This document shows positions 1-26,966 of a stretch of DNA of 64,000 bases, one piece after another. The stretch comes from Wickerhamiella versatilis (taxonomy: Eukaryota): positions 248,001-312,000 of the forward strand of contig JAQOWU010000007.1 in NCBI GenBank assembly GCA_030867685.1, in the 5' to 3' direction. The notes beneath the pieces were generated by a model. That model did not search any database, was not told the DNA's origin, and saw only the letters and a list, made by a program, of their open reading frames with translations. The position numbers and the translations under genes were made by a program. Numbering within the stretch: the first letter of the stretch is position 1; each line of letters starts with the position of its first letter.

Positions 1-1059
1 TCTAATCTTTCGTGGATAGCTGAGAACCTGGTATCTGATGAAGATTGGCGCTCGGATGGGCTGTAAACACATTTATACCCATATTCTGCACAGCGCCCGC
101 AGGCTGGCTTGATTGCATCACAGCGAGTCTTTTTCTTTCTGCAGTTATCACATGCTAAAGAAACGCGATTGTGCCTGGATTTTTCTACACGGTACGACAT
201 TTCCCGTCAAGATACCAACCGAACCCATTAGTCATCATCGACTCGGTCCATAAGTGTCGAGCGTTCCCAGCTTTTCATCCGCGCAGAACATAATATCACA
301 TCATATTCTGTCCTAATTTCGTTTTATAACATTTGAAACAAGTTGGAGCATATAGTAATTCTTTTTTGGTCTTTTCTAGCATATCGGGGAAATGCTGTTG
401 TTACAAATGATAGAGACTGTTCAAACCGTCAAATATTGTACAAACCGCTAGAGCTTAGCACTTTTGATCTAAATTACTTCTAGAAAATGATCTAGCAAGT
501 TGTAGATCTCGATTTATGTAACTTGGTAAGGTACTTTGATTATTCTACCATCATTTTCAGGTCTTTCCAAGATACGCAGACGTGCCAGACGGAAACCAAG
601 CTATCATAGTAAGGTGAAACGACGAAAATTATTCTATAACATACTGTGATAAGATTGGATTATAATCGCTAAACCAGTTTGGGATGTATTAATTTTCGGA
701 TTACAAGGCTTGGCTAAACAGCGATTTGTCACCGCGAACTAGATATCATTACAACTGGAGATAGCCATAAGAGGTAAGGGGAATATCTATCTTAATTGAT
801 ACAAGTAGCACACATTGTTTTCTAGCTAGGTGCTACTTTGTACTACTGATTTTTATCAGTTTGACCATCATTCTGAACTGTTTCCTTCCTAGCGCCATTC
901 TAGCGATTGCCAAAGCACTTGGGATCACGTTTTTCGAACCCAAGCACGGTTGTATGTACGGCCTAGAAAATGACTCCTTATTTCGTTTCAGTCGCTGCAA
1001 GATAACTCAAAATTTGGGAGACAGGATGCTTCATATGTTTGGTACTCAAAGTACCCAGA

Positions 1060-1953
1060 CTAAGTTATGTGTTTTCCCCCCTTGTTGTCAGCAGCGAACC
1101 GGTCTAAAGTATCAATATCATGGCCGAAAACGACCGTCGCGTTGGTAAGCCTCTGAAGCATTCTTAGCCTGCACGATGACCTGTACCAATCCGCCATTCC
1201 AGTTAATAGCCATCCCTGCGGATGCCCAAGCTCGTAGTTTTCTTTGATATGCACATGATCCGACGTAAAAATTACTGTCCCTGCATCGCGCAGATTAATT
1301 TGTAGCCAGATCAGACCGGGTGCATGCCCTGGAGACAGATGCAAAGTAATACCAGGAAATATATCCAGCTCCTGATCGCTAAATGTCTCCCACTTCAGGC
1401 CCATATCAAGGTAGTAAGGCAAGTAACCAGAATCAGAGTCAGTACACGCGGCCCAAAAGGCATGCTTCAGCTCAATCTCATGCGCCCAAATTTTCACATC
1501 GTCGCGGCCCTTGAAGTATTGCAAACCGCCAGCATGATCAAGGTGGAGATGGCTTATGATCACATGCCTCACGTCTTTAATATTGTAACCGGCACTTTCG
1601 ATGGCCTTATCTAATGATTGCATGCGGTCTCGGTTTGTTGGAACGAAAACCTCACAAACATGGTCCCATGATTCCTCATACGTGTCATAAAGACCCGGAC
1701 CGGTATCCCACAAAATAAGCCCATCTGATGGGTGATCTATAAGCACAGCATACATCTGAAGAGTATGAACCGCGTACTTCGCAGGCACACCGCCAGATTT
1801 AGTCCAAACGTTGCCAGCGCTACGCACAAAACTCTCGTCAAGACGGAGGTAGCCTAGGTTCAACACATGTATGGACGTACCTTCAGGCGCAAGGTTGCTC
1901 TGAGTGAGGGATTGAATAGCCGCCTGAGGACCGAATGCGAACCTTTTTGACAT
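1060..1953 (-). CDS. Metallo-beta-lactamase-fold lactonase/lactamase (AiiA/AttM N-acyl-homoserine lactonase / Fusarium MBL1-like)
   Basis: HLHLDHAGG (HxHxDH) zinc motif, LILWDTG, PGHAPG, FTSD, VFGHD. Start set at MSKRFAFG (1953); the longer ORF extension runs through poly-G tracts and looks non-coding. Confidence 0.85.
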   Translation of the reverse strand: MSKRFAFGPQAAIQSLTQSNLAPEGTSIHVLNLGYLRLDESFVRSAGNVWTKSGGVPAKYAVHTLQMYAVLIDHPSDGLILWDTGPGLYDTYEESWDHVCEVFVPTNRDRMQSLDKAIESAGYNIKDVRHVIISHLHLDHAGGLQYFKGRDDVKIWAHEIELKHAFWAACTDSDSGYLPYYLDMGLKWETFSDQELDIFPGITLHLSPGHAPGLIWLQINLRDAGTVIFTSDHVHIKENYELGHPQGWLLTGMADWYRSSCRLRMLQRLTNATVVFGHDIDTLDRFAADNKGGKHIT

Positions 1954-8503: not shown

Positions 8504-10066
8504 ATGTATTTCTTTCGACGGAAAAGCTGCAAAGTTTTGCCGCCTATTATCGTTATTTTGGCATGTTTAATACTTTTTTACTACAGTTATACTTCGGGAT
8601 TGCCTTTCTTGGAAGTCAACCAGTCAGAACCACGGGAGCCAGTCAAAATAAATACTGATGGCGCGTCTCGAAGGGACCTTATTCACGCTATACAGAAAAT
8701 GACTGCGCTCTCGAGTAAGACGCAGGAACTTTCAGATTATATTCGCGGTATAGAGCCGGATATAAAGGGATTTGAAAATGATACTGATTTAAGAGCAACT
8801 AGCAAGCAGTTGGAAGATTATCTTCAGGTTAGTGACGAACAGATTTTAGATCTGAAGCAATTGCATGAAAGGGTCTTGGAACACATGCCATCAAGATTAC
8901 GGGAGGGTGAGTATACAGGAAAGGGTATCGTCATGAGTGCGGACGGTAGCTACTTTCCGACTGCGCTGGCTAATGTTGCCTGGATTCGCAACAGAAACTA
9001 CACATTACCTATAGAGATTTACATTCCATACCGCAGATCATGGGAAGCTGCCTGTAATGATTTTTTACCCTCCCTAAATGTAAGGTGCAAGTGTCTTGAA
9101 GAACTTTATGGGGAGAGTTTGCTGAACTCTTTCAAAGTCCCCCAAGGCAAAGAGGGCTATTTATATAAGGGCCTCTCCATATTGATGTCAGACTTTGATG
9201 AGATATATTGGATGGATCCGGACTCATTGCCACTCATTGACGTGGAAGAGGGTCTCAATGAACCCCTTTTCCAGGATATTGGTTACATTTTTACGTCCGA
9301 CTATTGGCCAAGGCTAACGTCACCTTATTTTTATGATATAACCAATGTAACCCTAGGGCCGGATGATTTCGGGACCGGCAAGAAGCTGCTGCAAGTTGAT
9401 CGAGAGAATGCTATATCAGGCTTGTCTACTGAGAGTGGCCAATTCTTTGTTAAAAAGTCACAGCATTTCAAATCTCTGGTCCTTTCCGTTTATTATAATC
9501 TCAGAGGTAGTATCTGGTGGCCGCTCCTGACCCAGGGAGGGCCGGGCGAGGGTGACAAGGAGGTATGGCCCGCTGCCGCGCAGGTTCTCGGCGAGCCATG
9601 GTATCAAACACACACACAGCCTCTTACGGCAGGATACCGCCAGAATGGTGATAAGGACGAGTTTCATGGCATGTGTATGATACAGCCTGAGTTCTCAGTA
9701 GATCATAGGACCTATGATCTTGGTCGTACTAAAACCCCACCAAAGTACATGGCTCTTCATTTTAACATGTTGAAACTCAATGTGCAACGCGTCTTACGAG
9801 ATAATGGAGGGAAAATTCCACCATTTCGATATCTGGGGAATGTGACCGAATTCCAGAAGTCTTCTCGTATAAATAGTGATATCGAACTTGAAATGTGGAC
9901 TGCTGTACGTGATTCGACCTGTAAATGGGCTGTTGAAAAAAAGTTGGTACCTAATGATTGGGAATCGCTAGATTCTGCAAGGCATTATTGTGAGATACTT
10001 GAAGAAAGGATTCAATTTTTGGCTAAGTACCCTGAAGTGCCTATATTATTGAGTGCCCAACAATAA
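8504..10066 (+). CDS. Alpha-1,2-mannosyltransferase, GT71 (MNN2/MNN5 family)
   Basis: Type II N-terminal TM, GKGIVM, TLPIEI, DPD (DxD), DYWPRLTSPYFYDI, STESGQ, QGGPGEGDKE. Confidence 0.92.
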   Translation: MYFFRRKSCKVLPPIIVILACLILFYYSYTSGLPFLEVNQSEPREPVKINTDGASRRDLIHAIQKMTALSSKTQELSDYIRGIEPDIKGFENDTDLRATSKQLEDYLQVSDEQILDLKQLHERVLEHMPSRLREGEYTGKGIVMSADGSYFPTALANVAWIRNRNYTLPIEIYIPYRRSWEAACNDFLPSLNVRCKCLEELYGESLLNSFKVPQGKEGYLYKGLSILMSDFDEIYWMDPDSLPLIDVEEGLNEPLFQDIGYIFTSDYWPRLTSPYFYDITNVTLGPDDFGTGKKLLQVDRENAISGLSTESGQFFVKKSQHFKSLVLSVYYNLRGSIWWPLLTQGGPGEGDKEVWPAAAQVLGEPWYQTHTQPLTAGYRQNGDKDEFHGMCMIQPEFSVDHRTYDLGRTKTPPKYMALHFNMLKLNVQRVLRDNGGKIPPFRYLGNVTEFQKSSRINSDIELEMWTAVRDSTCKWAVEKKLVPNDWESLDSARHYCEILEERIQFLAKYPEVPILLSAQQ

Positions 10067-11042
10067 AATTTTGAGATGGTCAATGTAATTTCTTAATTTA
10101 TGGTCGATTGAAAGATTTTGTGTTAGTGCGTGAACAAATAGATGCTGACTAGAGGCAAAATGCACCTCAAGCATTGCTAATCATGATGAAATACATCAGA
10201 ATGATAAATTTAGTCTACAGGTTAGTCTACAAGAGGACTCAAATGTCTTTGCTAAGGCTTTAATTCATGGATAGTACTCGCAATAGATGTACCAAGGACA
10301 TTGATGATGTGGAAAGCTACCGACCGATTCAGAGTGTGAGCGCTTAATTGCTATAGGAGATAATTTATTAGTGAGATGTTCACGATATTAATACTGCCTG
10401 AAAAATTTCTCTGTTGCAAAACAATTTCAAGGTCATAAAAATTGCAAGCCTTCTGTTTTTGATCATCGAAATATCAAGCCCCGGTATATGAGTAAATTCT
10501 GGGGTTATGATGAGTCTTTAATTCAGATCAGTGAAAGGGACGAGCATGCCACCTGACAAAAGAAGCACAGATAACGGATGACAAATGATTAGGGAGCATA
10601 AAATTGAAGGGGTTCAGAATACAGGTGTATGCTCAAGTTTTTAAATCCTACCAGTGGGCTATCTTGGATTTTCCAGCTCGTCTCAAGCAGTGAAGTAGGC
10701 TACTACATTAATTAGACTCACCAGTATATAGCCTTAAGCTAAATGTAAATTGATAGCCCTTGGTTATGTAACTTGTGTCAGTTAATGATTGATGCGGTGA
10801 GACATCCTAATTCTCGTTAAGCCAATGACAGAACATCCAGCCGTCGAAATTCGAATGGGTGATAAGTGTTTCAATTATAACGAACATATTACTTCTAATG
10901 TGGTTTATCCATCACATATAAGTGTGGGTTCCGAACACCAGGATACGGCAGAACTTTGCAACACGGAGTCTGAGCTGGCCAAAGCTTTCAAGAATATCCG
11001 ACGTGAAAAGTTTCAATTATGACGAAGCTAAAACGCTACTAG

Positions 11043-12905
11043 CTAATGATCCCATAACGATCTGCCTGTATTCACCGGCTTAATCAGGCCGGAGCTTTCC
11101 AATTGCTTGGCAATATCCATTAATTGAATATCGCAGCCACTGCCACCTACTATACTCAGTGAAACAGGTAGCCACTCTTGCGAATGTGTGATGGTACTAT
11201 TGTATGGAACTTCCCCTAGGGGAATAACCATATCTGGGAGACTGCCTAGGTTGGCCAATCTTGTCGCACCAAACCCAACAGGTGGTCCTGATACTGGAGT
11301 TCCTGGGTATGATTGTCGTAAACTTGGCTCACCATCATTCGCTGGATAGACCAGAATTCTGGAACAGTCATCAGGTAGAACCTTCTGCATAAAGTCAGTG
11401 AATAATTGCTTTCGACTCACATGTTTTTCGTAGGTTCCGTTGGGCTGAGATTGCATCCAGCTCCACCTTGCAAGTACTGAAGGATCAAAGAAAGGCGCCC
11501 TGTGGTTCTTATCGTGATATGTCTTGTTAAAGGGGGACCCTACTGCCTGGTGTTGGTATCCAGCAATGAGTACGGCGTATGTCTCATTGGCGTAACTTGA
11601 TATGGTTTCGTTAACTTTTGTCATTGCATTCCAGTAGAATTCGAAACTTGTCTTTGTTTCATTTAATCCCGAGAAAGACTTGAACTGATCTAAGAACTTT
11701 CTATATATTTTTGATTGAGGTTCGAGCGCTGGCTCAAGTTCAGAGTGATTTTTCGGCAAAAGATTTTTCCAGAAATCTGCTGGAGTAAGAAGCTCAATAG
11801 GTGCAGTTCTTTTCGTATTATTGGTAAGGCCATACCAAGCCTTCCCAAAATCAAAAAAACTCGATGCATCCCTCGTGAAGAAACCCGGAGTATCCAAAAT
11901 ATCTGACATAGGCATCACACCCGTCAAGTTCATAATCCCAAAAGTGGGTCGTATTCCCTGGACTCCTGATGCGCCAGCAGGTCCTCGTATACTTCCACCT
12001 GTATCGCTACCAATGGCAGCATCGAGCCATTCGTAGGCTGCGATTGCAGCTCCTGAACCTGTCGAACTCCCTGAGGGGTTTCTATAGCCGTCGCCTCGTG
12101 GATTGAAAGGCTCGAGCTGCTCCGCCCATCCCGTGTTTGCAAATGGACACATTATTGTTTTTCCGACTAGAACAGCGCCAAGATTTATTAATCTCTGTAC
12201 GGGGTATGAGTTCGAGGCAGCAGGTCCGTACGTCTCGTAGTACGGGCGACTCCCACAGCCTGTACGAACCCCTGCAATATCAAACAAATCTTTCACAGCT
12301 ACCCTTACTCCATTAAGTGGCTTTTCATTCGTCTTTGGCCCATAGTAAAGTCTTGAGGGCACAGGAATCTCATTTCCCTCTGCCTCTACAAATTCGTCTG
12401 ACCCCGTTTTGAAAAGTCCAGTAGTGAAAGCTTCATGGGTATCCCTGTAAAGCCGAGCAACAGGATAAAGGACATCTTTATCAATAACATAAGGTCCTTC
12501 AGGTATAGCTGCTTGTAAAGAGGGAAGAATAGAAACCGACTGGTTTCGTGGACTCATACTAAGAGACGTGCAATTCTCATCGGGAAGAAGGTATATATTC
12601 TCTAGAAACTCTGGAGACCAGACGTCATCTTCATAAAACGTATCGAGAGCCTCAGTGGAACATCCGTGGATAGCTGTCGCCAACATTGGCAAAGATTCAT
12701 TAGCACCTACTGTTGGAACAGAAAATGTGGATAGTGAAATGCTATGATCTACTAGAGATGCATAGGGAGTTTCCCCAATTGTAAACGTAAAGTGTTGGAT
12801 ATTTTGAGGACCATGTGCTGTACTTTTAGAAAATGTTGAACGACGTTCGAATTTTACCGGCGCAGATAAGGCCAGTGTGGCCTCGAGCAATAATATGGGC
12901 CACAT
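11043..12905 (-). CDS. Secreted amidase (amidase-signature family)
   Basis: Signal peptide, PLNGVRVAVKDLFD (catalytic Lys), PSGSSTGSGAAIA, GSDTGGSIRGPA (Ser-cisSer-Lys triad). Confidence 0.9.
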   Translation of the reverse strand: MWPILLLEATLALSAPVKFERRSTFSKSTAHGPQNIQHFTFTIGETPYASLVDHSISLSTFSVPTVGANESLPMLATAIHGCSTEALDTFYEDDVWSPEFLENIYLLPDENCTSLSMSPRNQSVSILPSLQAAIPEGPYVIDKDVLYPVARLYRDTHEAFTTGLFKTGSDEFVEAEGNEIPVPSRLYYGPKTNEKPLNGVRVAVKDLFDIAGVRTGCGSRPYYETYGPAASNSYPVQRLINLGAVLVGKTIMCPFANTGWAEQLEPFNPRGDGYRNPSGSSTGSGAAIAAYEWLDAAIGSDTGGSIRGPAGASGVQGIRPTFGIMNLTGVMPMSDILDTPGFFTRDASSFFDFGKAWYGLTNNTKRTAPIELLTPADFWKNLLPKNHSELEPALEPQSKIYRKFLDQFKSFSGLNETKTSFEFYWNAMTKVNETISSYANETYAVLIAGYQHQAVGSPFNKTYHDKNHRAPFFDPSVLARWSWMQSQPNGTYEKHVSRKQLFTDFMQKVLPDDCSRILVYPANDGEPSLRQSYPGTPVSGPPVGFGATRLANLGSLPDMVIPLGEVPYNSTITHSQEWLPVSLSIVGGSGCDIQLMDIAKQLESSGLIKPVNTGRSLWDH

Positions 12906-14136
12906 GAATAGAATAGACTAGACCTGTCTGAGAATCTAAAACTAATATGCAATGGGCAAGGGATGCGTTTCCTTTATGGGTAATTCTTATCTAAACTGCT
13001 GTGAATCCCAAAACCTGACATTTGCCCTCTGCTACGTCGTAATATAATAGGAAGTCAAACAAATAAGAAGATACAAACCTTTTTTTTCTATTCAGCACAC
13101 CGGATTTCTATGACAACAAGCTAACTACTTATATCAGGCGTTTTCTGCGCCGCGAATAGACCAAAACATATTATAGAGTATATCTTACTGACTCGTTTTA
13201 GAGTTGTATACCATTCACACTATTAGATTGTGTGCTAAATCCAGGTTACTGTGAGCACTATAAAGGAGAATGCTCAAAACTTTGGGATCATCGATGACCA
13301 ATAAGACGATTCGAATTAGCACAAATTCCACGTTTAGTACCTAGTTGTTCAAATATTGTTTCACGGTTAGGGCAGCTAAACCTTCTAACTCATATGCAAG
13401 CCTCGCCGATATCTGGATGAGACGACTAATTATCAATTTTGATTGTACCTAAAATTCTTTATATCGGTTTCCAAGGCAGGATCTTCTTATATATCGCTGT
13501 GAGCTGGATGTTCCCCCACTTTAGGGGGATTGACATAACAGTCCCTCAAAATAAAGAAGTGCCAGAATCATGTAAGCTTATAGCAGAGTATTATCCTTAG
13601 GATCCACCTCGCCTCTGATACATATCCCAAGAGATTATGATATTTTCAGTAAATGACCTCAACCTTACTTAATTATTAACGGTCTCTGTTCCATCCGAAG
13701 CCCACCATTTTCGTTTACCTCGTGTGTAATGTGTGTACATTCTCGTAAAGCAATGAATCCTATTCGTTACTGTGTCAATGCCAACCTCTGATCAGAATGT
13801 ATTCAATATGAGGATGGCCCACCATGTACTAGAAATTACAAAAAAAACACGAGGCGGCTGCTCCCTTATAGTGTGTGTAGCCGAAATAATATAGGAATAC
13901 AGGACCAAAAGCAACCTAGCGAGTTTTTAATATCATGAACTTTATTCACATTATTGTTTTAAAATCTATTTTATTTTGGGATTGTTTCTATTAAAGCACC
14001 AACCAAGATCTGTATATCTATGGAGCCAGTGACGCCACTGCCGCGAACCATAAACTTTCATTGAATACAATTAACTATATAGAAAGTGTGCTATATGTAC
14101 GTCCATATAATAATTAGCATTCCTCTTGCCGCAAAT

Positions 14137-14334
14137 TTACGTCAACGTCGGCTATTTTTCTCTCCCACTTAGTAAGATTTTTTTTTGTCTCATACCGATG
14201 CGTCGGAGCCCTACATTCCGCAGTGACATGATGGCCCACTACTATAGTCAATCTCTATAAGAATTATATTATATCGTTATTAAGTGTCCTTTTGTCCGTA
14301 TGGAAAATAATAGGAGGACTTTCGGCGTTACTAA
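14137..14334. promoter_or_regulatory. Candidate stress elements upstream of catalase: CRE-like TTACGTCA (14137-14144), Yap1-type TTAGTAA (14169-14175) and TTACTAA (14328-14334)
   Basis: Exact motif matches 330-520 bp upstream of the catalase ATG; short motifs can occur by chance. Confidence 0.4.
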
Positions 14335-14660
14335 AGTGCTGTGATCGTGCTCGTAAAAGCAACCGTTACCCAATGCAGTGTTTTGCTTAAGATTACAAAC
14401 TGACATTGCATGAGATCTTTCAAGAATAATTGCTTTCGGTTATTGTTAAATGGGTTTTAGAAAAATACACAATTTCTTCATAAATTGGTGCTCTTTCTAC
14501 ATATCATTTGAGTATATCCTCCGGCTATTCTGCGTATGTAGTGCGATTTTCATATTACGTACGCTTGTTTATTAACAAATGTCTAATTGGTGGGTGGTCT
14601 AGAATTTGTCAAAGTTAGCATATATATAGTTAATAAATTCCCTCTAATTGGGTCGTTACC

Positions 14661-16817
14661 ATGAAGACTGGTCTGCTTTTTCTAGGTGCCACACTTGGAA
14701 TTGCGCTGGCTGATAGCCAAGCAGCTGGTGTGAATGCCCCTGACCGTGCCAATACCAATGCAAAGATCCAGCAGTTAGAGGAGGATGCGTATTTCGATCC
14801 ATCCTATCACTGGTTGACATCATCTCTTGGCGTTGGTGTTCAGGATAACGAGAATACTCTGAAGGCTGGTGGTGCTCGCGGCCCTCAGCTCCTTGCAGAC
14901 TTTTTGTTTCGGGACAAGATGACCGCATTTGACAGAGAACGTATTCCCGAGCGAGTTGTCCATGCTCGTGGATTTGGTGTTCACGGTGTATTCAAGCCCT
15001 ATCCGGGTAACGAGAAGTACACCACTTCGAAGGTATTCACCAATACCTCTCATGAAACTCCGATGTTCGCCCGTATTTCAAACGTTCAGGGATTCCGTGG
15101 ATCTGCGGACAATGTGCGTGATGTCCACGGATTCGCTCTCAAGTTTTACACAGAGGAGGGTAACTGGGATCTAGTCGGTAACGATATCCCTGTTTTCTTC
15201 ATGCAGGACGGCACCAAATTCTTCGACTTCATCCACGCCCTGAAGCCTGAGCCACACAATGAAATCCCACAGGGTCAGAGTGCTCATGATACCTTCTGGG
15301 ATTACATTGGGCTTAACACCGACTCTGCGTTCATGTCAGAGTTTATCATGTCCGACCGTGGTATCACACGCAATATTCGTGCTATCAATGGCTATGGTGT
15401 CCACACTTTCCGATGGATTAACTCCGAGGGTAAGTCCTGGTTTGTTAAATACATCTGGAAGAACGAGAAGGATGGTAATACCCAGCTTGTTTGGGATGAG
15501 GCTACCACCCTTCAAGGTAAGGACCCTGATTTCAATCGTCGTGATATGTGGAACGCTGTCAACTCTGGTCACGACTACCCTAAGTGGATTATGTATGTGC
15601 AGCTTTTCACCGAGGAAGAAGCCGCCGGTTGGGACTTCGACCACCTTGACGCGACCAAGCTTATTCCAGAGGAGCTTGTGCCTTTGACCCCAGTTGGTGA
15701 GTTCACGTTGAACCGTAATGTGGAGGATTACCATGCTGAAACGGAGCAGATTTCCTTCTCTCCTGCTAATATTGTTCCTGGTATGGATTTCTCTAACGAT
15801 CCTCTTCTACAAGGCCGTCTCTTCGCTTATACTGACACTGCTCTCTACCGCCTCGGCACTGTTAACTTCAATCAGATACCCATTAACCGTCCACTTTGCC
15901 CATTCGCAGCCAACCGTCGTGGTGGCTTTGCTCAGCAGCGTATTGTTCGCGGTGAGGCATCGTACGAGCCGAATAGCATTGACGCTGGGTGGCCCCGTCC
16001 TGATCCTCACGGATTCAGGTCGTTCCCAGAAAATGTCACTGGTCCAATTGTTCGTGAGCGTCCTCAGTCGTTCTCGAACCATTTCAGTCAGGCCCAGATG
16101 TACTGGAACTCGCTGGCTCCTTATGAACAGAACCACACAATCAACGGTTATTCATTTGAACTCTCCAAGGTTATGCGCCCTGAAATCCGTCAACGGGTGG
16201 TTGACCGTGTTCTCCAAAATATCAACATAACTCTTGCGGAATCAGTTGCTCAAAACCTTGGCCTCCAAGTAAACACAAGTTACAAGGTTGATGTGCCTGC
16301 TCCACGAATCCCGCGTGCTGCCAACATTTCCTACGAAAGCCAGAAGCCTCAGACGATTGCACACAACCAGATTGCAATCCTCGTTCACGAGGGTGCCAAT
16401 GGTGACAACATTAAGGCTGTGCAAGATTGGGCTCAGAAGAACGGTGCTGTTCCTCTGGTACTCAACCAGCCTCTTTCCACCATAACCACCTCTCAAAATC
16501 AGACCATCCAGCCAGATGCTCGCCGTGATGGTCAGGGCTCTGTCACAGTTGACGCTGTTGTTGTTGTTGACGGAAACACAGGTGTAACCGACGTTGAGAA
16601 GGACGGTTCTACTAAGCTATACATTCGTGAGGCTTACCAACACTTGAAGCCAATTGCTTTCCTCGGCGATCGTGCTGCGCTTATTGACTATCTAGGTCTC
16701 CACGCCGATACTGGCACCATAACTGGTAACACCTTCTCAGATGTCCAGGATCAGTTCCACAAAGCCCTTCTGAACCACCGTCTATGGGAACGTGAACCTT
16801 ATGCCTCGACAGTCTAA
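14661..16817 (+). CDS. Large-subunit (clade 2, KatE/HPII-type) heme catalase with signal peptide and C-terminal DJ-1/GATase-like domain
   Basis: FDRERIPERVVHARG (distal His), WDLVGND (Asn), LQGRLFAYTDT (proximal Tyr), C-terminal EAYQHLKPI; hydrophobic leader MKTGLLFLGATLGIALA; strong codon bias. Confidence 0.96.
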   Translation: MKTGLLFLGATLGIALADSQAAGVNAPDRANTNAKIQQLEEDAYFDPSYHWLTSSLGVGVQDNENTLKAGGARGPQLLADFLFRDKMTAFDRERIPERVVHARGFGVHGVFKPYPGNEKYTTSKVFTNTSHETPMFARISNVQGFRGSADNVRDVHGFALKFYTEEGNWDLVGNDIPVFFMQDGTKFFDFIHALKPEPHNEIPQGQSAHDTFWDYIGLNTDSAFMSEFIMSDRGITRNIRAINGYGVHTFRWINSEGKSWFVKYIWKNEKDGNTQLVWDEATTLQGKDPDFNRRDMWNAVNSGHDYPKWIMYVQLFTEEEAAGWDFDHLDATKLIPEELVPLTPVGEFTLNRNVEDYHAETEQISFSPANIVPGMDFSNDPLLQGRLFAYTDTALYRLGTVNFNQIPINRPLCPFAANRRGGFAQQRIVRGEASYEPNSIDAGWPRPDPHGFRSFPENVTGPIVRERPQSFSNHFSQAQMYWNSLAPYEQNHTINGYSFELSKVMRPEIRQRVVDRVLQNINITLAESVAQNLGLQVNTSYKVDVPAPRIPRAANISYESQKPQTIAHNQIAILVHEGANGDNIKAVQDWAQKNGAVPLVLNQPLSTITTSQNQTIQPDARRDGQGSVTVDAVVVVDGNTGVTDVEKDGSTKLYIREAYQHLKPIAFLGDRAALIDYLGLHADTGTITGNTFSDVQDQFHKALLNHRLWEREPYASTV

Positions 16818-17058
16818 TCTAGTTGAAACTATGTATAATTAGTTTGTTCCTAAGTTTGTATTATTTTGCTCGTTCATTTAATAACTTAGATTGACACATG
16901 TTTAGCAATACAAGTTCCGTGATATCTGCATCGTGAGTGCAAGTCGACAACTAGTCTAGAGGTAAGACTAATACAGAATGAGTCAATAAAAAAAAAGGAA
17001 CGAGAAACCTCTTATATTTGTCATTTACTTCATCTCCCCCTGATATGTACAACAATAG

Positions 17059-17574
17059 TTAGTGAGAACTCAAGGTTAATTGAAGAAATGCGAGATCTAG
17101 CCACTTACCGAACTTTGTCCCAACTTCAGTTAAGACACCAGTTCGCTTGAACCCAAATTTTTCATGTAGTTTTACGGATGATTCATTTCCTGCTTCGATA
17201 CCCGCTACTATGACATGGAACCCATCATTTCTGCCTCGAACAATCAATTCTTCCAGTAAGGCTTTACCAATACCGCGGCCGCGTTGATCAAAGCGTACGT
17301 ATATAGAGTCCTCAACCGTATGACGATACCCATCCCAAGAGCGAAAATCACTCAATGTCGCAAATCCGACAACCACATCATCTACTAGAGCTGCAATGAC
17401 CGGGTATCCATTATCCTTGTGATTATAAAGCCACCGAGCTCGATTATCAGCATCAACGGTTACTTCATTCCAGACAGCAGTCGTGTGGATCACTGCATGG
17501 TTATAGATTTCGGCAATCTCAAAACAATCCTGTGCTTCTGCATTACGTATTTGCATGTTACTAATCACCGACAT
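17059..17574 (-). CDS. GNAT N-acetyltransferase, YncA/MnaT/Pat family (methionine sulfoximine/sulfone, phosphinothricin-type), bacterial-like
   Basis: IAEIYNHAV, TVDADNR, DGYRHTVEDSIYV, QRGRGIGK (acetyl-CoA motif A), EVGTKFGKWLD closely follow enterobacterial YncA as I recall it. Start may be the second Met (MQIRNA). Confidence 0.92.
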   Translation of the reverse strand: MSVISNMQIRNAEAQDCFEIAEIYNHAVIHTTAVWNEVTVDADNRARWLYNHKDNGYPVIAALVDDVVVGFATLSDFRSWDGYRHTVEDSIYVRFDQRGRGIGKALLEELIVRGRNDGFHVIVAGIEAGNESSVKLHEKFGFKRTGVLTEVGTKFGKWLDLAFLQLTLSSH

Positions 17575-17689
17575 ATCAGACTATCGTTATTACGGCAGTA
17601 AGAGTCTTGTTAATATAAAATAGATCCGATACTGTATAGTCTATTTTTAAGCAAAGCTAAACTGTTGGGGGTTCTGTCGCAACTAGCAC

Positions 17690-19765
17690 CTATAATACTA
17701 TAGCATACGCCGAAGCAGCTATAATGAGAACTCCGCTAGTAAGTAAATTACGCGTTCCCAGTGAGGAAAGTGCCGCAGGAGTTCCTGATACAATAGAAGT
17801 TGAGGCAGATGACGAATTAGAGACCTGCGAGGTTGTACCTGTAGAGATAGAAGTTGGTTTTGTGACATTTGACATTTGAGTACTCAATGCAACTAGTCCA
17901 GAGTATGAAGTATTTGGTGATACACTTGTAGTGTTGCAGATAGCGGAAGAATTTGACGTATCGTTCAACTTAAGCAACCAAACATAATCTCTGATAGATC
18001 CATCTTCTCCCTTTATGTACTCCCAATATGCAGCCGACTCGTTGTGCACTGTAATCTTTGCGAATCCGTAGTTCTCATAATCCAACACGTTGGTGATATT
18101 AAGTGGCTTCTCACCATCAGAGAGCGTGCTGTGACTTTCAAGATTACCTGCAGCACCGTTAATTAAATGAGTGAGAGAGCTCCCTTCGTTCACATAGTAG
18201 GTATAATTATCCTTGATGGCACTGGAATCAATCTCTCCGTCTAAGGTGAGAGGATAAAGACGTTCGTACCAATGAATATGTCCTGAAATATAAGCATCAA
18301 CATTATACTTGAACAACAATGGCTCGAACGCGTTGCGTACATGTTTTTGATAACCAGCAACTTGTGAGCTGTACATGGGACGGTGGCTCATAACAAAGAC
18401 CCATGGTGTCTTGCGGCGATCCACAGATGCAAGGTCATTATTTAACCACTTCCACTGCGCATACGCCTCATTATCCTTCCAGCTGCCATCTATCGGGCCA
18501 AATGGACCGCTGTCCGTGATATAAGTCTCATTTTCAGTTGGTAAACCAGTTGGATTATCTTCCACAAAAGGCGCATTTGGACTGTATGCGAAATCAGTTT
18601 CGGTATCTATAGATACGAAATGAGCTAGACCGTAATCGAAAGAGTACCAGAAATTAGACACCCCATTAGTCTCTTCTCCAGGCATTCTAAACCTGTTTTG
18701 AAAAGCGGTGAAATTACGCTGCGAAGCCGGGCAGCTATAATAATTTAGTTCACTCTCAGCAGTGGTTGAATTAGTTTCGTTATGTACCAAATAGGCCGAA
18801 AGTTCATGATGAGGTGCATCAAATTCTGCACAGGTAGTCTCATGATTTCCGGGAAGAACCATGTAAGGAATGACTGTCGTCACATTGTTCATCCACTGTT
18901 GCCAAAGGTCCCAATTAGTTTCATAAATTACGCTCATGTCACCACCTTCAGGTCCACCTTGGTTCGGAACTTCACCCTCTGGTAGTGGGGCATCATATAA
19001 TTTGGGGACTGGTGCAGGACCTGGCATTCTAGAGCTTGTCCCATTGTAGCACACAGGCCAATCATCTGTGCATTCCATGAATCCGTCAGACCAGTCATCT
19101 GCATAGCTGAGGTCTCCACCATGCCACACGAATGACAGTGGCTTTTCACCAAAGATAGAATCTAAAACATGTCTGTAGGTTCCCCCAGCATTGGTATAAC
19201 CCATATCGTTGACAACTGCCAGTGTAAACTTACTGGAGTCGCCAGGCTTTTTGGCCGTGGTAAACTTTAGCACATTGGACTCAGTAGTTCCATTAGCAGC
19301 CGTGATTTGGTAGTAATATGTGGTGTCTGGCAGCAAGTCATGCAGCTGAACCTCGTGGAAGTACTGGCTACACATGGTTACGGCCGCCAAAGAACATGGC
19401 GGTGTCCGATCATAAGAGTGGGTCTTCCCTGAAGCCATGCGATCAAGATGATTTGAATCAGTACCCCAAGCTACAGCTGGTGATGTTCCCAGCCCAAATG
19501 GTGTCTGGTAATGAATGTTCATACCATTCGGCAAATAAGATAATGATATCACATTTATATTATTGGTTGGATTGCTTGACGAGGGCTTGACAGCTGGAGG
19601 CTCAACGATTCGTGGAAACCCTTTACCGTCCCCATTTATAGTTGGATCAACCCAATCACCAATGGGTACGTTTGGACCGGTATATGGATAACGAGTATCC
19701 ACATATGCGGCTGCGTGAGTAGTCGTGAAGAGAGCCACTCCTACGATATTACAAAATGACCTCAT
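17690..19765 (-). CDS. Purple acid phosphatase (Aspergillus AphA-like), secreted, with Ser/Thr stalk and probable GPI signal
   Basis: Metallophosphoesterase motifs NDMG, GDLSYAD, GNHE, SHRP, GHIH; FN3-like N domain; signal peptide; S/T-rich tail ending in hydrophobic LLTSGVLIIAASAYAIVL. Confidence 0.93.
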   Translation of the reverse strand: MRSFCNIVGVALFTTTHAAAYVDTRYPYTGPNVPIGDWVDPTINGDGKGFPRIVEPPAVKPSSSNPTNNINVISLSYLPNGMNIHYQTPFGLGTSPAVAWGTDSNHLDRMASGKTHSYDRTPPCSLAAVTMCSQYFHEVQLHDLLPDTTYYYQITAANGTTESNVLKFTTAKKPGDSSKFTLAVVNDMGYTNAGGTYRHVLDSIFGEKPLSFVWHGGDLSYADDWSDGFMECTDDWPVCYNGTSSRMPGPAPVPKLYDAPLPEGEVPNQGGPEGGDMSVIYETNWDLWQQWMNNVTTVIPYMVLPGNHETTCAEFDAPHHELSAYLVHNETNSTTAESELNYYSCPASQRNFTAFQNRFRMPGEETNGVSNFWYSFDYGLAHFVSIDTETDFAYSPNAPFVEDNPTGLPTENETYITDSGPFGPIDGSWKDNEAYAQWKWLNNDLASVDRRKTPWVFVMSHRPMYSSQVAGYQKHVRNAFEPLLFKYNVDAYISGHIHWYERLYPLTLDGEIDSSAIKDNYTYYVNEGSSLTHLINGAAGNLESHSTLSDGEKPLNITNVLDYENYGFAKITVHNESAAYWEYIKGEDGSIRDYVWLLKLNDTSNSSAICNTTSVSPNTSYSGLVALSTQMSNVTKPTSISTGTTSQVSNSSSASTSIVSGTPAALSSLGTRNLLTSGVLIIAASAYAIVL

Positions 19766-20422
19766 GTTCGATACCTAATTTTATTCTGGACAGTGGGCAC
19801 AATATAGGCACACAAAGCTGTTATCTTTAATATATAAGAGCTTACAGATGTCTTGCATACTATAGGCTAGTTTATTTTCCACAAACTACTTTAAATCCTC
19901 TTGGATTTGTGCCTTTGTACCTATGTATGCAACGAACCGTTTTTTAGTGCTATAGAACCAATTTGCCAATAATCATTTGCAAGCAGAAGCGATTACATTG
20001 TATATGAAAATGTTATCTTTTAGCTTCTCTTATATAAGCTACAATCTCTAGGGTTACTCTTTTCCTCGGAGATGTAAACAATGTTTATAATTATAGCTGG
20101 AGATCATAGCTCAATAGGAGCGATAGAATCTTCGCTGATAGGCTATTCTTCCAGATTGTTACGAAATATATCATACTATGATGTACCTTCCTCATGTCCT
20201 GCATATATGGTGATATCAATTGTCTAACTGAAAATTTAAGCTCTGCTGGAGACAATAGAAGGCCACTGGCGCGATAGGTTTAAAAACACAACATTGTTAA
20301 TTTTGCGAGATATGATGCAATCTTTCTTTGTCACGTTATTGAAGCCGTGAAAGAGACAACGGTGGCTTCGCAATTTTGCTTCTTCCACGTCCCCGACACT
20401 GACTTCTGACTCTATAATATAA

Positions 20423-26330: not shown

Positions 26331-26966
26331 ATGTCATCATTGTATTTGTCAGGAATCGGTTCCAGAAGGTTTGTGACGCTATCTTTTTCAAGTATAAGAA
26401 GTTACTCAGGAATTTCCGTCAAAGCCATGCAGCCTCAAAGTGTTCTAGACTTCTGGTTCCATGCTGATATGAAGCCCTACTGGTTTGCTCGAAGTGATCA
26501 AGTTGATGAACAGATTAGCACGAAATTTAAGGAGACGTGGAAAAGTGCCAGTCAGGCAGAGCTTTGGGCTTGGCGCGATAGTGCAGAAGGCTGCCTGGCG
26601 GAAATCATAGTGTTGGATCAGTTTTCCCGCAACTTATTCCGAAATTCCCGCTTGGCATTTGCGCAGGACCCGCTAGCTTTAGGTTTGGCCCAGCAAGCTA
26701 TCAGACATGGTTTGGATAAAGCCCTGACACCAGAGCAACGTCTTTTTCTATATTTGCCGTTCATGCATAGTGAGTCGGTCCTCATCCATGAGTGCGCCTT
26801 GAAACTGTTCGGGGATCTTGGCAATCCCCAGTCATTAGACTTCGAGAAGAAGCATAAAATAATAATCGACAAATTTGGGCGATATCCGCATCGCAATTCT
26901 GTCTTAGGTCGCACATCAAGCCCAGAAGAGACCGAGTTCCTAAGTCAACCTGGCTCAGGGTTTTAG
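26331..26966 (+). CDS. DUF924 family protein (bacterial-like core) with N-terminal mitochondrial-type presequence
   Basis: VLDFWF, LAEIIVLDQFSRN, FLYLPFMHSE, FGRYPHRNSVLGR, FLSQPGSGF; Ser/Arg-rich leader before MQPQ (26427). Confidence 0.9.
   Translation: MSSLYLSGIGSRRFVTLSFSSIRSYSGISVKAMQPQSVLDFWFHADMKPYWFARSDQVDEQISTKFKETWKSASQAELWAWRDSAEGCLAEIIVLDQFSRNLFRNSRLAFAQDPLALGLAQQAIRHGLDKALTPEQRLFLYLPFMHSESVLIHECALKLFGDLGNPQSLDFEKKHKIIIDKFGRYPHRNSVLGRTSSPEETEFLSQPGSGF

Follow-up and report, generated by a model that had tools for sequence, protein, structure and literature searches.

The closest described counterparts of a secreted catalase in a fungus are the large-subunit enzymes of the L2 type, e.g., CAT-3 of Neurospora crassa, the catalase of Penicillium vitale, CATPO of Scytalidium, and PaCATB of Podospora, which possess an N-terminal leader and N-glycosylation sites. 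In the relevant sections of a recent review (Hansberg 2022, PMC9687031), L2 catalases are characterized by a signal peptide and association with the cell wall, and Saccharomycetes are credited with small-subunit catalases only; the corresponding part of the work on Podospora presents PaCATB as a secreted catalase of the L2 type (PMC3184978). Here, we consider a gene encoding a large-subunit catalase of another type, located at positions 14661..16817 on the forward (+) strand of a 64,000-nucleotide (nt) stretch of DNA (below, "the window") from the budding yeast Wickerhamiella versatilis (GenBank assembly GCA_030867685.1, contig JAQOWU010000007.1, positions 248,001 to 312,000). A first-pass annotation, made from the letters of the window, had regarded it as a bacterial KatE-type catalase converted into a secreted glycoprotein, with the remark that budding yeasts typically have only small-subunit catalases; the latter agrees with the sections of the review mentioned above (Hansberg 2022, PMC9687031).

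Acquisition by eukaryotes of catalases from bacteria, Gammaproteobacteria included, has been documented repeatedly. According to the pertinent parts of the published reports, three independent acquisitions took place in trypanosomatids (PMC8773446), and the large-subunit catalases of Dictyostelium were acquired from bacteria as well (Zamocky et al. 2012, PMC3523812). These transfers involved other recipients and other donors, and the same parts of the reports describe no secretion leader arising after the transfer. Yeasts of the Wickerhamiella/Starmerella clade are portrayed, in a dedicated study, as harboring many bacterial genes enriched in redox functions, and a bacterial catalase-peroxidase is listed in its supplement (Goncalves et al. 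2018). The latter is a KatG-type enzyme, unlike the KatE-type gene of the window, and the main text and eight supplementary files of that study contain no KatE-type catalase. Likewise, catalase is not mentioned in the main text of a survey of 829 fungal genomes (mBio 2024). In the literature, we found no report of the transfer of a KatE-type catalase into budding yeasts; its listing in large tables of horizontal gene transfer (HGT) is possible.

The yeast enzyme resembles the L2 catalases in its signal-peptide-like N-terminal leader and its potential N-glycosylation sites, along with a presumed extracellular role. By descent, however, it is not one of them: it scores 447–493 bits against their solved structures, is distant from them in all trees, and its monophyly with them is rejected (see below). 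Its nearest named relatives are the 692-amino-acid (aa) catalases of Acinetobacter (e.g., those of A. amyesii, A. pragensis, A. parvus, and A. shaoyimingii), which agree with it in their three-domain architecture and catalytic residues. Unlike the yeast enzyme, with its 17-residue leader and seven new N-glycosylation sequons, the HPII catalases of Moraxellaceae and Pseudomonas have hydrophilic leaderless N-termini and 0–4 sequons. The yeast gene also departs from the Acinetobacter clade in its eukaryotic promoter, mRNA, and codon usage and sits on a branch 2–3 times longer, whereas HPII of Escherichia coli is distinguished by a longer N-terminal extension and by a His in the position of a yeast Asn. 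Overall, we regard an independent transfer of a catalase gene from a bacterium to a yeast as real and, judging from the sequence, its product as probably rerouted to the secretory pathway.

The encoded enzyme and its bacterial ancestry

The open reading frame (ORF; 14661..16817, +) encodes 718 aa without interruption, and its predicted product is an intact clade 2 (HPII/KatE-type) catalase retaining all the catalytic residues checked. The catalase core (PF00199, E 5.6e-152, profile positions 1–382 of 383) spans aa 53–441 (14817..15983, +) and contains His101, Ser140, Asn174, Arg386, and Tyr390, all of which show little or no variation among the 118 bacterial-type relatives described below. We take His101 and Asn174 to be the distal His and Asn, and Tyr390 to be the proximal Tyr paired with Arg386, and we assume for these residues and for Ser140 the roles known from HPII. 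The core is followed by the alpha-helical catalase-related domain (PF06628, E 6.6e-17; aa 469–533; 16065..16259, +) and by the C-terminal domain of large-subunit catalases (PF18011, E 1e-12; aa 570–712; 16368..16796, +), i.e., the flavodoxin/DJ-1-like domain separating large from small subunits. Upstream of the core, the N-terminal arm of the mature enzyme (14712..14816, +) carries the AG..(P/L)DR..N(T/S)N.K motif of long bacterial HPIIs. At the opposite end, the C-terminus ...YASTV is unlike the bacterial ...IPA; in it, we recognize no peroxisomal targeting signal 1 (PTS1), HDEL, or hydrophobic glycosylphosphatidylinositol (GPI)-type tail.

Among solved structures, the best relatives are E. 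coli HPII and eKatE (PDB 1gge and 6lfk; 650–681 bits, E 1e-194 to 1e-203, residues 23–716), ahead of N. crassa CAT-1 (556 bits) and the L2 group (447–493 bits). The sole NCBIfam match is "catalase HPII" (NF008422) at 866.8 bits, which does not reach the curated equivalog cut-off of 1102; hence, the enzyme is classified among the clade 2 catalases rather than among the equivalogs of the E. coli-type HPII. These results bear out the first-pass annotation, which had called a large-subunit catalase closer to bacterial KatE than to mould CatB or CatA; the segments that it quoted, YEPNSI and SFELSKVMRPEIRQRVVD, are found in the protein.

Relatives were collected as the best 120 of 8000 scored matches from 5.8 billion clustered proteins. 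This set comprises P0002 (718 aa, 90% identity), P0003 (an identical fragment), and 118 other proteins; P0002 and P0003 are the only catalases of the yeast type in it, and every named protein among the 118 is bacterial. The closest named matches listed are the 692-aa Acinetobacter catalases (54–56% identity, 867 bits), and other HPIIs of Moraxellaceae and Pseudomonas come next with approximately 50% identity. An exhaustive search of 1.84 billion representatives revealed no family closer to the yeast catalase. A metagenome scan for yeast-type copies yielded none among the best 80 of 362 relatives, all of which are at most 59% identical.

Phylogenetic trees were built from 66 rows under LG+G4 and from 38 rows under a mixture model, the latter with a quick and then a careful search with bootstraps. 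The outgroups from the representative search included an L2 protein of Penicillium (P0257, 1476 bits to 2iuf) and a CAT-1-like protein (P0244, 765 bits to 1sy7); further outgroups came from Ceraceosorus, Capsaspora, Lonsdalea (an HPII), and one actinobacterium. The yeast pair is sister to the 692-aa Acinetobacter clade with a support of 100/100, and this placement recurs in all trees; in the next enclosing set (99/97), further Acinetobacter, Moraxellaceae, and Pseudomonas sequences surround the two. In approximately unbiased (AU) tests, the grouping of the yeast proteins with the L2 representative P0257 was rejected (log-likelihood −63, p 2e-5), and so was their grouping with the L1-like representative P0244 plus Capsaspora (log-likelihood −140, p 9e-8), the main limit of these tests being the one or two sequences per fungal class (one for L2) and their long branches. 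Both the trees and the AU tests uphold the HGT proposed in the first-pass annotation, and nesting within the secreted L2 catalases, checked with the one L2 representative, is rejected.

Finer features of the proteins also touch upon the donor. The yeast proteins and the Acinetobacter clade have a derived Asn in common, found in 62 of the 118 relatives (the other 56 have His); we presume that this position aligns with the His of the HPII His–Tyr cross-link. At the same time, the "AG...DR..N.N.K" arm of the yeast enzyme aligns with the N-termini of HPIIs from Pseudomonas, Alkanindiges, and Moraxellaceae and is missing in the 692-aa Acinetobacter clade. An arm kept by the yeast and lost in the crown of that clade would fit a donor from its stem or from an unsampled lineage of Moraxellaceae. 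The yeast stem branch amounts to 0.69–0.94 substitutions per site vs. approximately 0.35–0.5 on the sister side. Hence, considering the length of this branch together with the strong host-directed codon bias (see below), the transfer does not seem to be recent. Overall, the comparison leaves little doubt that the catalase gene is of bacterial origin, and it supports an Acinetobacter-like, i.e., Moraxellaceae-type, gammaproteobacterium as the likely donor.

Leader, sequons, and adaptation to the host

The putative start codon (ATG, 14661..14663, +) has an A at position −3 and is the first ATG after in-frame stops located 10–11 codons upstream. The three ATGs that follow (14734, 14758, and 14785) lie in other frames, so that the catalase frame has no further ATG until codon 87 (14919). 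The first 17 codons (14661..14711, +) encode a signal-peptide-like leader, MKTGLLFLGATLGIALA, which consists of one basic residue (Lys), a run of approximately 15 residues that are uncharged or hydrophobic, and A-L-A, a small-x-small end with putative cleavage after Ala17. Its best 10-residue hydropathy is 2.28, similar to that of leader-bearing host proteins encoded in the window, namely, the amidase (2.29), purple acid phosphatase (2.27), and S28 peptidase (2.40). In P0002, the hydrophobicity of the leader is kept despite changes in 6 of its 17 residues.

None of the 118 bacterial-type relatives and none of 25 named bacterial loci displays such a leader, so the closest bacterial homologs do not carry signal peptides of their own. 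The 25 hydropathy flags raised among the bacterial relatives all correspond to a conserved segment of the mature protein (residues 25–34), and no Tat motifs were encountered. As to the source of the leader, no similar DNA was found elsewhere in the window. These comparisons show that the leader is a gain of the yeast branch, independent of the fungal L2 catalases. As a separate observation, P0244, a 733-aa catalase that among solved structures is closest to CAT-1 (765 bits), a cytosolic enzyme of the L1 type, starts with a signal-peptide-like leader, too; large-subunit catalases may, therefore, have acquired leaders on more than one occasion.

The seven sequons (all +) are present exactly as listed in the first-pass annotation. 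Four of them, N458 (NVT, 16032..16040), N491 (NHT, 16131..16139), N522 (NIT, 16224..16232), and N538 (NTS, 16272..16280), are found in 0 of the 118 bacterial relatives; N555 (NIS, 16323..16331) and N613 (NQT, 16497..16505) are found in one relative each, and N128 (NTS, 15042..15050) in three. Six of the seven reside in the C-terminal third of the protein. Six positions are also common to P0002: N128 is kept and N555 is the same, and four have altered letters yet preserve the sequon (NVS at N458, NDT at N522, NTT at N538, and NYT at N613); N491 is lost (KHT). The bacterial-type relatives contain 0–4 sequons (mean 1.9), and the seven of the yeast catalase exceed all of them. Expressed as density, the yeast enzyme has 9.7 sequons per 1000 residues, compared with 9.7–23 in leader-bearing proteins of the window and 0–6 in most others, including cytosolic ones. 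By comparison with the bacterial relatives, all seven sequons are gains in the yeast lineage. The acquisition of leader and sequons after the transfer, as envisaged in the first-pass annotation, is thereby placed on the yeast branch (0/118 relatives with the leader, 0–3/118 per sequon site).

The gene is physically embedded among eukaryotic genes and represents no contaminant. Fungal-type neighbors on both sides encode an arrestin, an Mnn-type mannosyltransferase, a sequon-rich purple acid phosphatase, major facilitator superfamily (MFS) and purine-cytosine permeases, a fungal-specific transcription factor, and many oxidoreductases; none of these ORFs contains introns. For one of the neighbors, a D-lactate dehydrogenase, the closest named matches come from Blastobotrys (53%) and Trichomonascus (51%); a quick tree, only indicative as it concerns a single marker, places it outside a clade of 11 Pezizomycotina sequences, and its group joins early-branching budding yeasts. 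The exact catalase protein occurs on seven contigs, the longest of 873,793 bp. DNA identity to Acinetobacter (approximately 65% over approximately 1 kb) is limited to the coding sequence, and the flanks of the gene show no DNA similarity to bacteria.

Signs of a larger transferred segment were not found: none of seven neighboring proteins is represented in Moraxellaceae catalase loci, and a match to ADH in a Chitinophagaceae catalase locus (30% identity) was judged irrelevant to co-transfer. Between positions 12900 and 17100, there are 8 sites resembling bacterial promoters, compared with 9.5 ± 2.7 in shuffled sequences, and 0 terminators. The interval 10000–20000 contains no tRNA genes, and the 1.75-kb gap upstream of the catalase has no ORF of 46 aa or longer. 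A TATA-like element, TATATATA (14621..14628, +), is situated approximately 25–35 nt upstream of the mapped cap sites (see below).

The strong codon bias noted in the first-pass annotation proved real: the effective number of codons (ENC) of the catalase, 44.3, is the lowest among the 32 ORFs of the window (51–61 in the others). The top codons coincide with those of the peroxiredoxin of the window for 14 of 18 amino acids, with those of the pooled neighbors for 9 of 18, and with those of Acinetobacter catalase genes for 7 of 18. The G+C content at third codon positions (GC3) is 0.50 in the yeast catalase and 0.26 in the Acinetobacter genes. This strong bias of the host type implies long selection for expression.

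Transcripts, a diverged allele, and competing explanations

Transcription was followed over positions 13800–17800 with three RNA-seq runs, random-primed X12 and poly(A) runs X15 and X16, which carry the same species label and originate from a strain diverged by approximately 2%. The depth of X12 over the catalase coding sequence is approximately 1000–1800 (both read orientations summed), with less than 60 in the flanks; in X15/X16, it is approximately 40–80, like that of the neighboring acetyltransferase gene. The catalase RNA is unspliced, with no splice joints in the interval. The 5′ ends of the mRNA (cap sites) map to 14650..14656 (+) by X15/X16 reads with a template-switch-oligo-like tail, which we take to be the SMART oligo: tails ending in GGG immediately precede 14650 and 14655 (6 + 6 + 6 reads). 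Since the tailed reads begin at these two positions, the 5′ untranslated region (5′UTR) comprises only approximately 5–11 nt. The X12 fragment ends piling up at 14668 and 14675 presumably reflect the loss of extreme 5′ ends upon random priming. The stop codon and a short 3′UTR occupy 16815..16880 (+), the end being approximate: coverage stops approximately 25–65 nt past the stop codon, and the depth of X12 drops from approximately 1000 to approximately 270 in the bin 16748–16881 and then to approximately 12. Besides the catalase transcript, low yet distinct RNA coverage (depth approximately 10–60) is seen at 13800–14067, upstream of the catalase promoter in the 1.75-kb gap; it could stem from a transcript that is not annotated or represent the end of a transcript located further upstream.

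The same reads document the divergence of the strain. Of its 77 differences in the stretch, 40 are listed, including 37 inside the coding sequence that touch 36 codons; among the differences listed, 32 of the 36 changed codons are synonymous in the catalase frame, including all five between the start codon and codon 87 (codons 21–83). The catalase frame has thus been under purifying selection.

The following scenario is, as a whole, judged fairly probable. A cytoplasmic clade 2 catalase gene of an Acinetobacter-like (Moraxellaceae) bacterium would have been transferred alone into a budding yeast from which at least two closely related lineages descend. Domestication would have supplied it with a TATA-containing yeast promoter, a short polyadenylated mRNA, and the translationally preferred codons of the host. 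The first residues of the enzyme would have been replaced or extended to form a cleavable signal peptide for the endoplasmic reticulum (ER), and seven N-glycosylation sequons would have arisen, with all but one in the outer C-terminal third. Translation in the window strain would start from ATG 14661, and the product would enter the ER, undergo cleavage after Ala17, and be N-glycosylated mainly on its outer C-terminal third. Eventually, a heme catalase situated outside the plasma membrane (in the medium, periplasmic space, or cell wall) would remove external H2O2, presumably to the ecological benefit of the yeast. It is because a leader was acquired and seven sequons arose that the enzyme of the window strain most likely enters the secretory pathway. 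Within this scenario, the ancestry of the gene, the completeness of its catalytic residues, the acquisition of leader and sequons in the yeast, the codon usage, and the existence and ends of the transcript are established, and the use of ATG 14661, import into the ER, glycosylation, final location, and benefit are inferred. A more sweeping version, according to which a budding yeast re-invented the secreted glycosylated large catalase from a gene of a bacterium living in the same habitat, for extracellular defense against H2O2 produced by competitors or by the substrate, and now possesses alleles ranging from intact to freshly disabled, is tentative, and we lean slightly away from it.

A number of observations weigh against the secretion scenario. 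The signal-peptide call follows from simple hydropathy and the small-x-small rule. The 5′UTR mapped in the related strain (approximately 5–11 nt) is very short, and, in yeast scanning, a 5′UTR of this length favors leaky initiation. All the read-based evidence of transcription stems from the allele of the diverged strain; the window allele is represented in RNA only by four short contigs, identical to the window, from one food metatranscriptome, which may contain DNA. These contigs are also the sole hint at a habitat, for which the first-pass annotation had suggested nectar or honey. In 2000 shuffles of the yeast catalase, 5.5 ± 2.1 sequons were obtained (P(≥7) = 0.30); hence, the seven sequons, correctly listed as they were in the first-pass annotation, do not exceed the number expected by chance from the composition of the protein. 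The long stem branch could reflect relaxed constraint rather than adaptation. An AlphaFold2 model computed from a 13-row alignment was discarded as uninformative (mean predicted local distance difference test score, pLDDT, 52; predicted template modeling score, pTM, 0.38).

Further observations concern the allele of the RNA-seq strain, in which the start ATG is replaced by GTG (A>G at 14661 in 11/11 reads of X15, 24/24 of X16, and 3/3 of X12). An artefact of the template-switch oligo was rejected as a source of this change: the tagged reads align from 14650 or 14655, and the G lies inside the aligned part. An apparent 8-nt deletion of 14837..14844 (+), present in the window, is indicated by 183 X12 reads clipped after 14836, whose overhang fits window positions 14845–14858 at 13 of 14 letters; it would give a stop at codon 60. 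Another apparent deletion, of 13 nt, affects 15271..15283 (+), which in the window is part of the conserved QGQSAHD stretch: overhangs after 15270 (33 X12, 5 X15, and 5 X16 reads) equal 15284–15295 at 12/12 letters, and those before 15283 (68 X12 and 3 X15 reads) equal 15259–15269 at 11/11. Beside these sites, the depth of X12, elsewhere 1100–1700, collapses to 308 at 14909 (approximately 1450 at 14975) and to 236 at 15302. Both deletions were read from clipped reads and depth dips; a food-metatranscriptome contig covering 15204–15354 spans the 13-nt site undeleted. If the deletions are real, the RNA-seq strain carries a freshly disabled yet strongly transcribed allele, and the GTG start together with two frame-breaking deletions suggests that at least one lineage can dispense with the gene or is losing it. 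Adjoining the apparent 8-nt deletion, positions 14845–14876 of this strain exhibit seemingly dense third-position changes, far above the average of approximately 2%; in the overhang before 14877, 4 of 10 letters differ from the window, all synonymously.

The main competing explanation holds that the bacterial-derived catalase stays intracellular, its leader being poorly translated, bypassed, or weak/dual-targeting and its sequons being a compositional by-product. It is in line with the cytoplasmic nature of the bacterial ancestors, with a number of sequons lying within compositional chance (P = 0.30) in a protein of raised N+S+T content (18.4% vs. 15.6%), with the very short 5′UTR, and with the abundance of mRNA in the strain that has lost the start codon. 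Initiation downstream of the leader would, however, have to pass three out-of-frame ATGs without meeting an in-frame one before codon 87, and the product starting there would lack the N-terminal arm and the beginning of the catalase core. The frame and hydrophobicity of the leader are, moreover, kept in P0002, all five listed codon changes before codon 87 are synonymous, and six of the seven sequon positions persist in both yeast proteins even though the letters of four sequons have changed. An intracellular enzyme is, on balance, unlikely. Still less likely is entry into the secretory pathway without release, the enzyme residing in the vacuole or ER/Golgi lumen or being tightly bound to the cell wall or periplasm and protecting these compartments. 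Against it stands the ...YASTV terminus, devoid of any HDEL-type or GPI-type signal that we recognize; the leader and sequons, however, speak for ER entry only and not for the final destination, and the review cited above places the L2 catalases of filamentous fungi at the cell wall (Hansberg 2022, PMC9687031).

The damaged allele invites the explanation that a once-useful gene is losing its function species-wide, the window copy being merely unbroken so far. The loss of the start codon and the two apparent frameshifting deletions fit it, as does the scarcity of the gene (two yeast-type lineages in the best 120 of 8000 matches and none in the best 80 of 362 metagenome relatives). However, the 718-codon ORF is intact with all its catalytic residues, 32 of the 36 listed codon differences between the strains are synonymous, P0002 is full-length at 90% identity, the exact intact protein occurs on seven contigs, and the codon bias of the host type implies that expression has long been selected for; a relic is, therefore, very improbable. 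Vertical inheritance of a fungal L1/L2 catalase, bacterial contamination, or a chimeric assembly has a negligible probability, being refuted by the tests. Large-subunit catalases do exist in fungi, and those of the L2 type bear signal peptides, but the AU tests, with one or two sequences per fungal class, reject both L1 and L2 affinity, and the scores against HPII/eKatE (650–681 bits) surpass those against fungal structures (447–556 bits). A contaminant or chimera is contradicted by the fungal neighbors on a long contig, yeast codon usage, poly(A) RNA, the absence of bacterial flanks, and an identity of only 54–56% to any bacterium among the matches listed. The overall interpretation offered in the first-pass annotation is supported in part: the transfer and the acquisition of leader and sequons are upheld (trees, AU tests, and 0/118 leaders), and secretion, glycosylation, and a nectar or honey niche are conjectural. 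A simple account in terms of adaptive necessity is weakened by the allele of the related strain, which looks disabled, and by the closeness of the cap sites to the start codon.

The claim remains modest in that catalase transfers to eukaryotes and secreted large-subunit catalases are each already known, and transferred genes are known to gain signal peptides. If true, the secretion scenario would provide a clean, datable case showing that, to function in the secretory pathway of a eukaryote, a bacterial cytoplasmic enzyme requires another promoter, re-tuned codons, a leader, and sites for glycans. In a group said to have small-subunit enzymes only, evolution would have convergently repeated the ancient emergence of the fungal L2 catalases. 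The coexistence of intact and disabled alleles would represent a natural experiment on the fitness value of a catalase gene and would make this a rare system in which the arrival of a transferred enzyme, its change of compartment, and its loss can be followed within one species. Large-subunit catalases are described in the literature as notably stable, and an HPII-type catalase naturally made and secreted by a yeast would be of biotechnological interest.

Other genes of the window

Convergent to the catalase and 241 nt downstream of it, a 171-aa GNAT acetyltransferase is encoded at 17059–17574 (−). Its best NCBIfam matches are bacterial N-acetyltransferases for arsinothricin/phosphinothricin resistance (ArsN1b, 128 bits at a cut-off of 210). 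The gene is transcribed (depth approximately 30–50 in the poly(A) runs) and occurs in none of 80 bacterial catalase loci; like the catalase, it may descend from a bacterial gene. Further along, at 26331–26966 (+), a 211-aa protein of the DUF924 family ("bacterial protein of unknown function", E 1.5e-63) is encoded, with a Ser/Arg-rich N-terminus resembling a mitochondrial presequence.

The window as a whole (1–64000) harbors a run of genes for accessory metabolism, including three aldo-keto reductases, several dehydrogenases, a GMC oxidoreductase, a sulfatase, and a guanine deaminase. It also encodes an amidase that bears 12 sequons and a leader of its own, a protein of the metallo-beta-lactamase fold, an epoxide hydrolase, transporters, and a peroxiredoxin. 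In this respect, the window resembles a subtelomere-like region, or a plastic one of another kind, in which acquired genes might accumulate.

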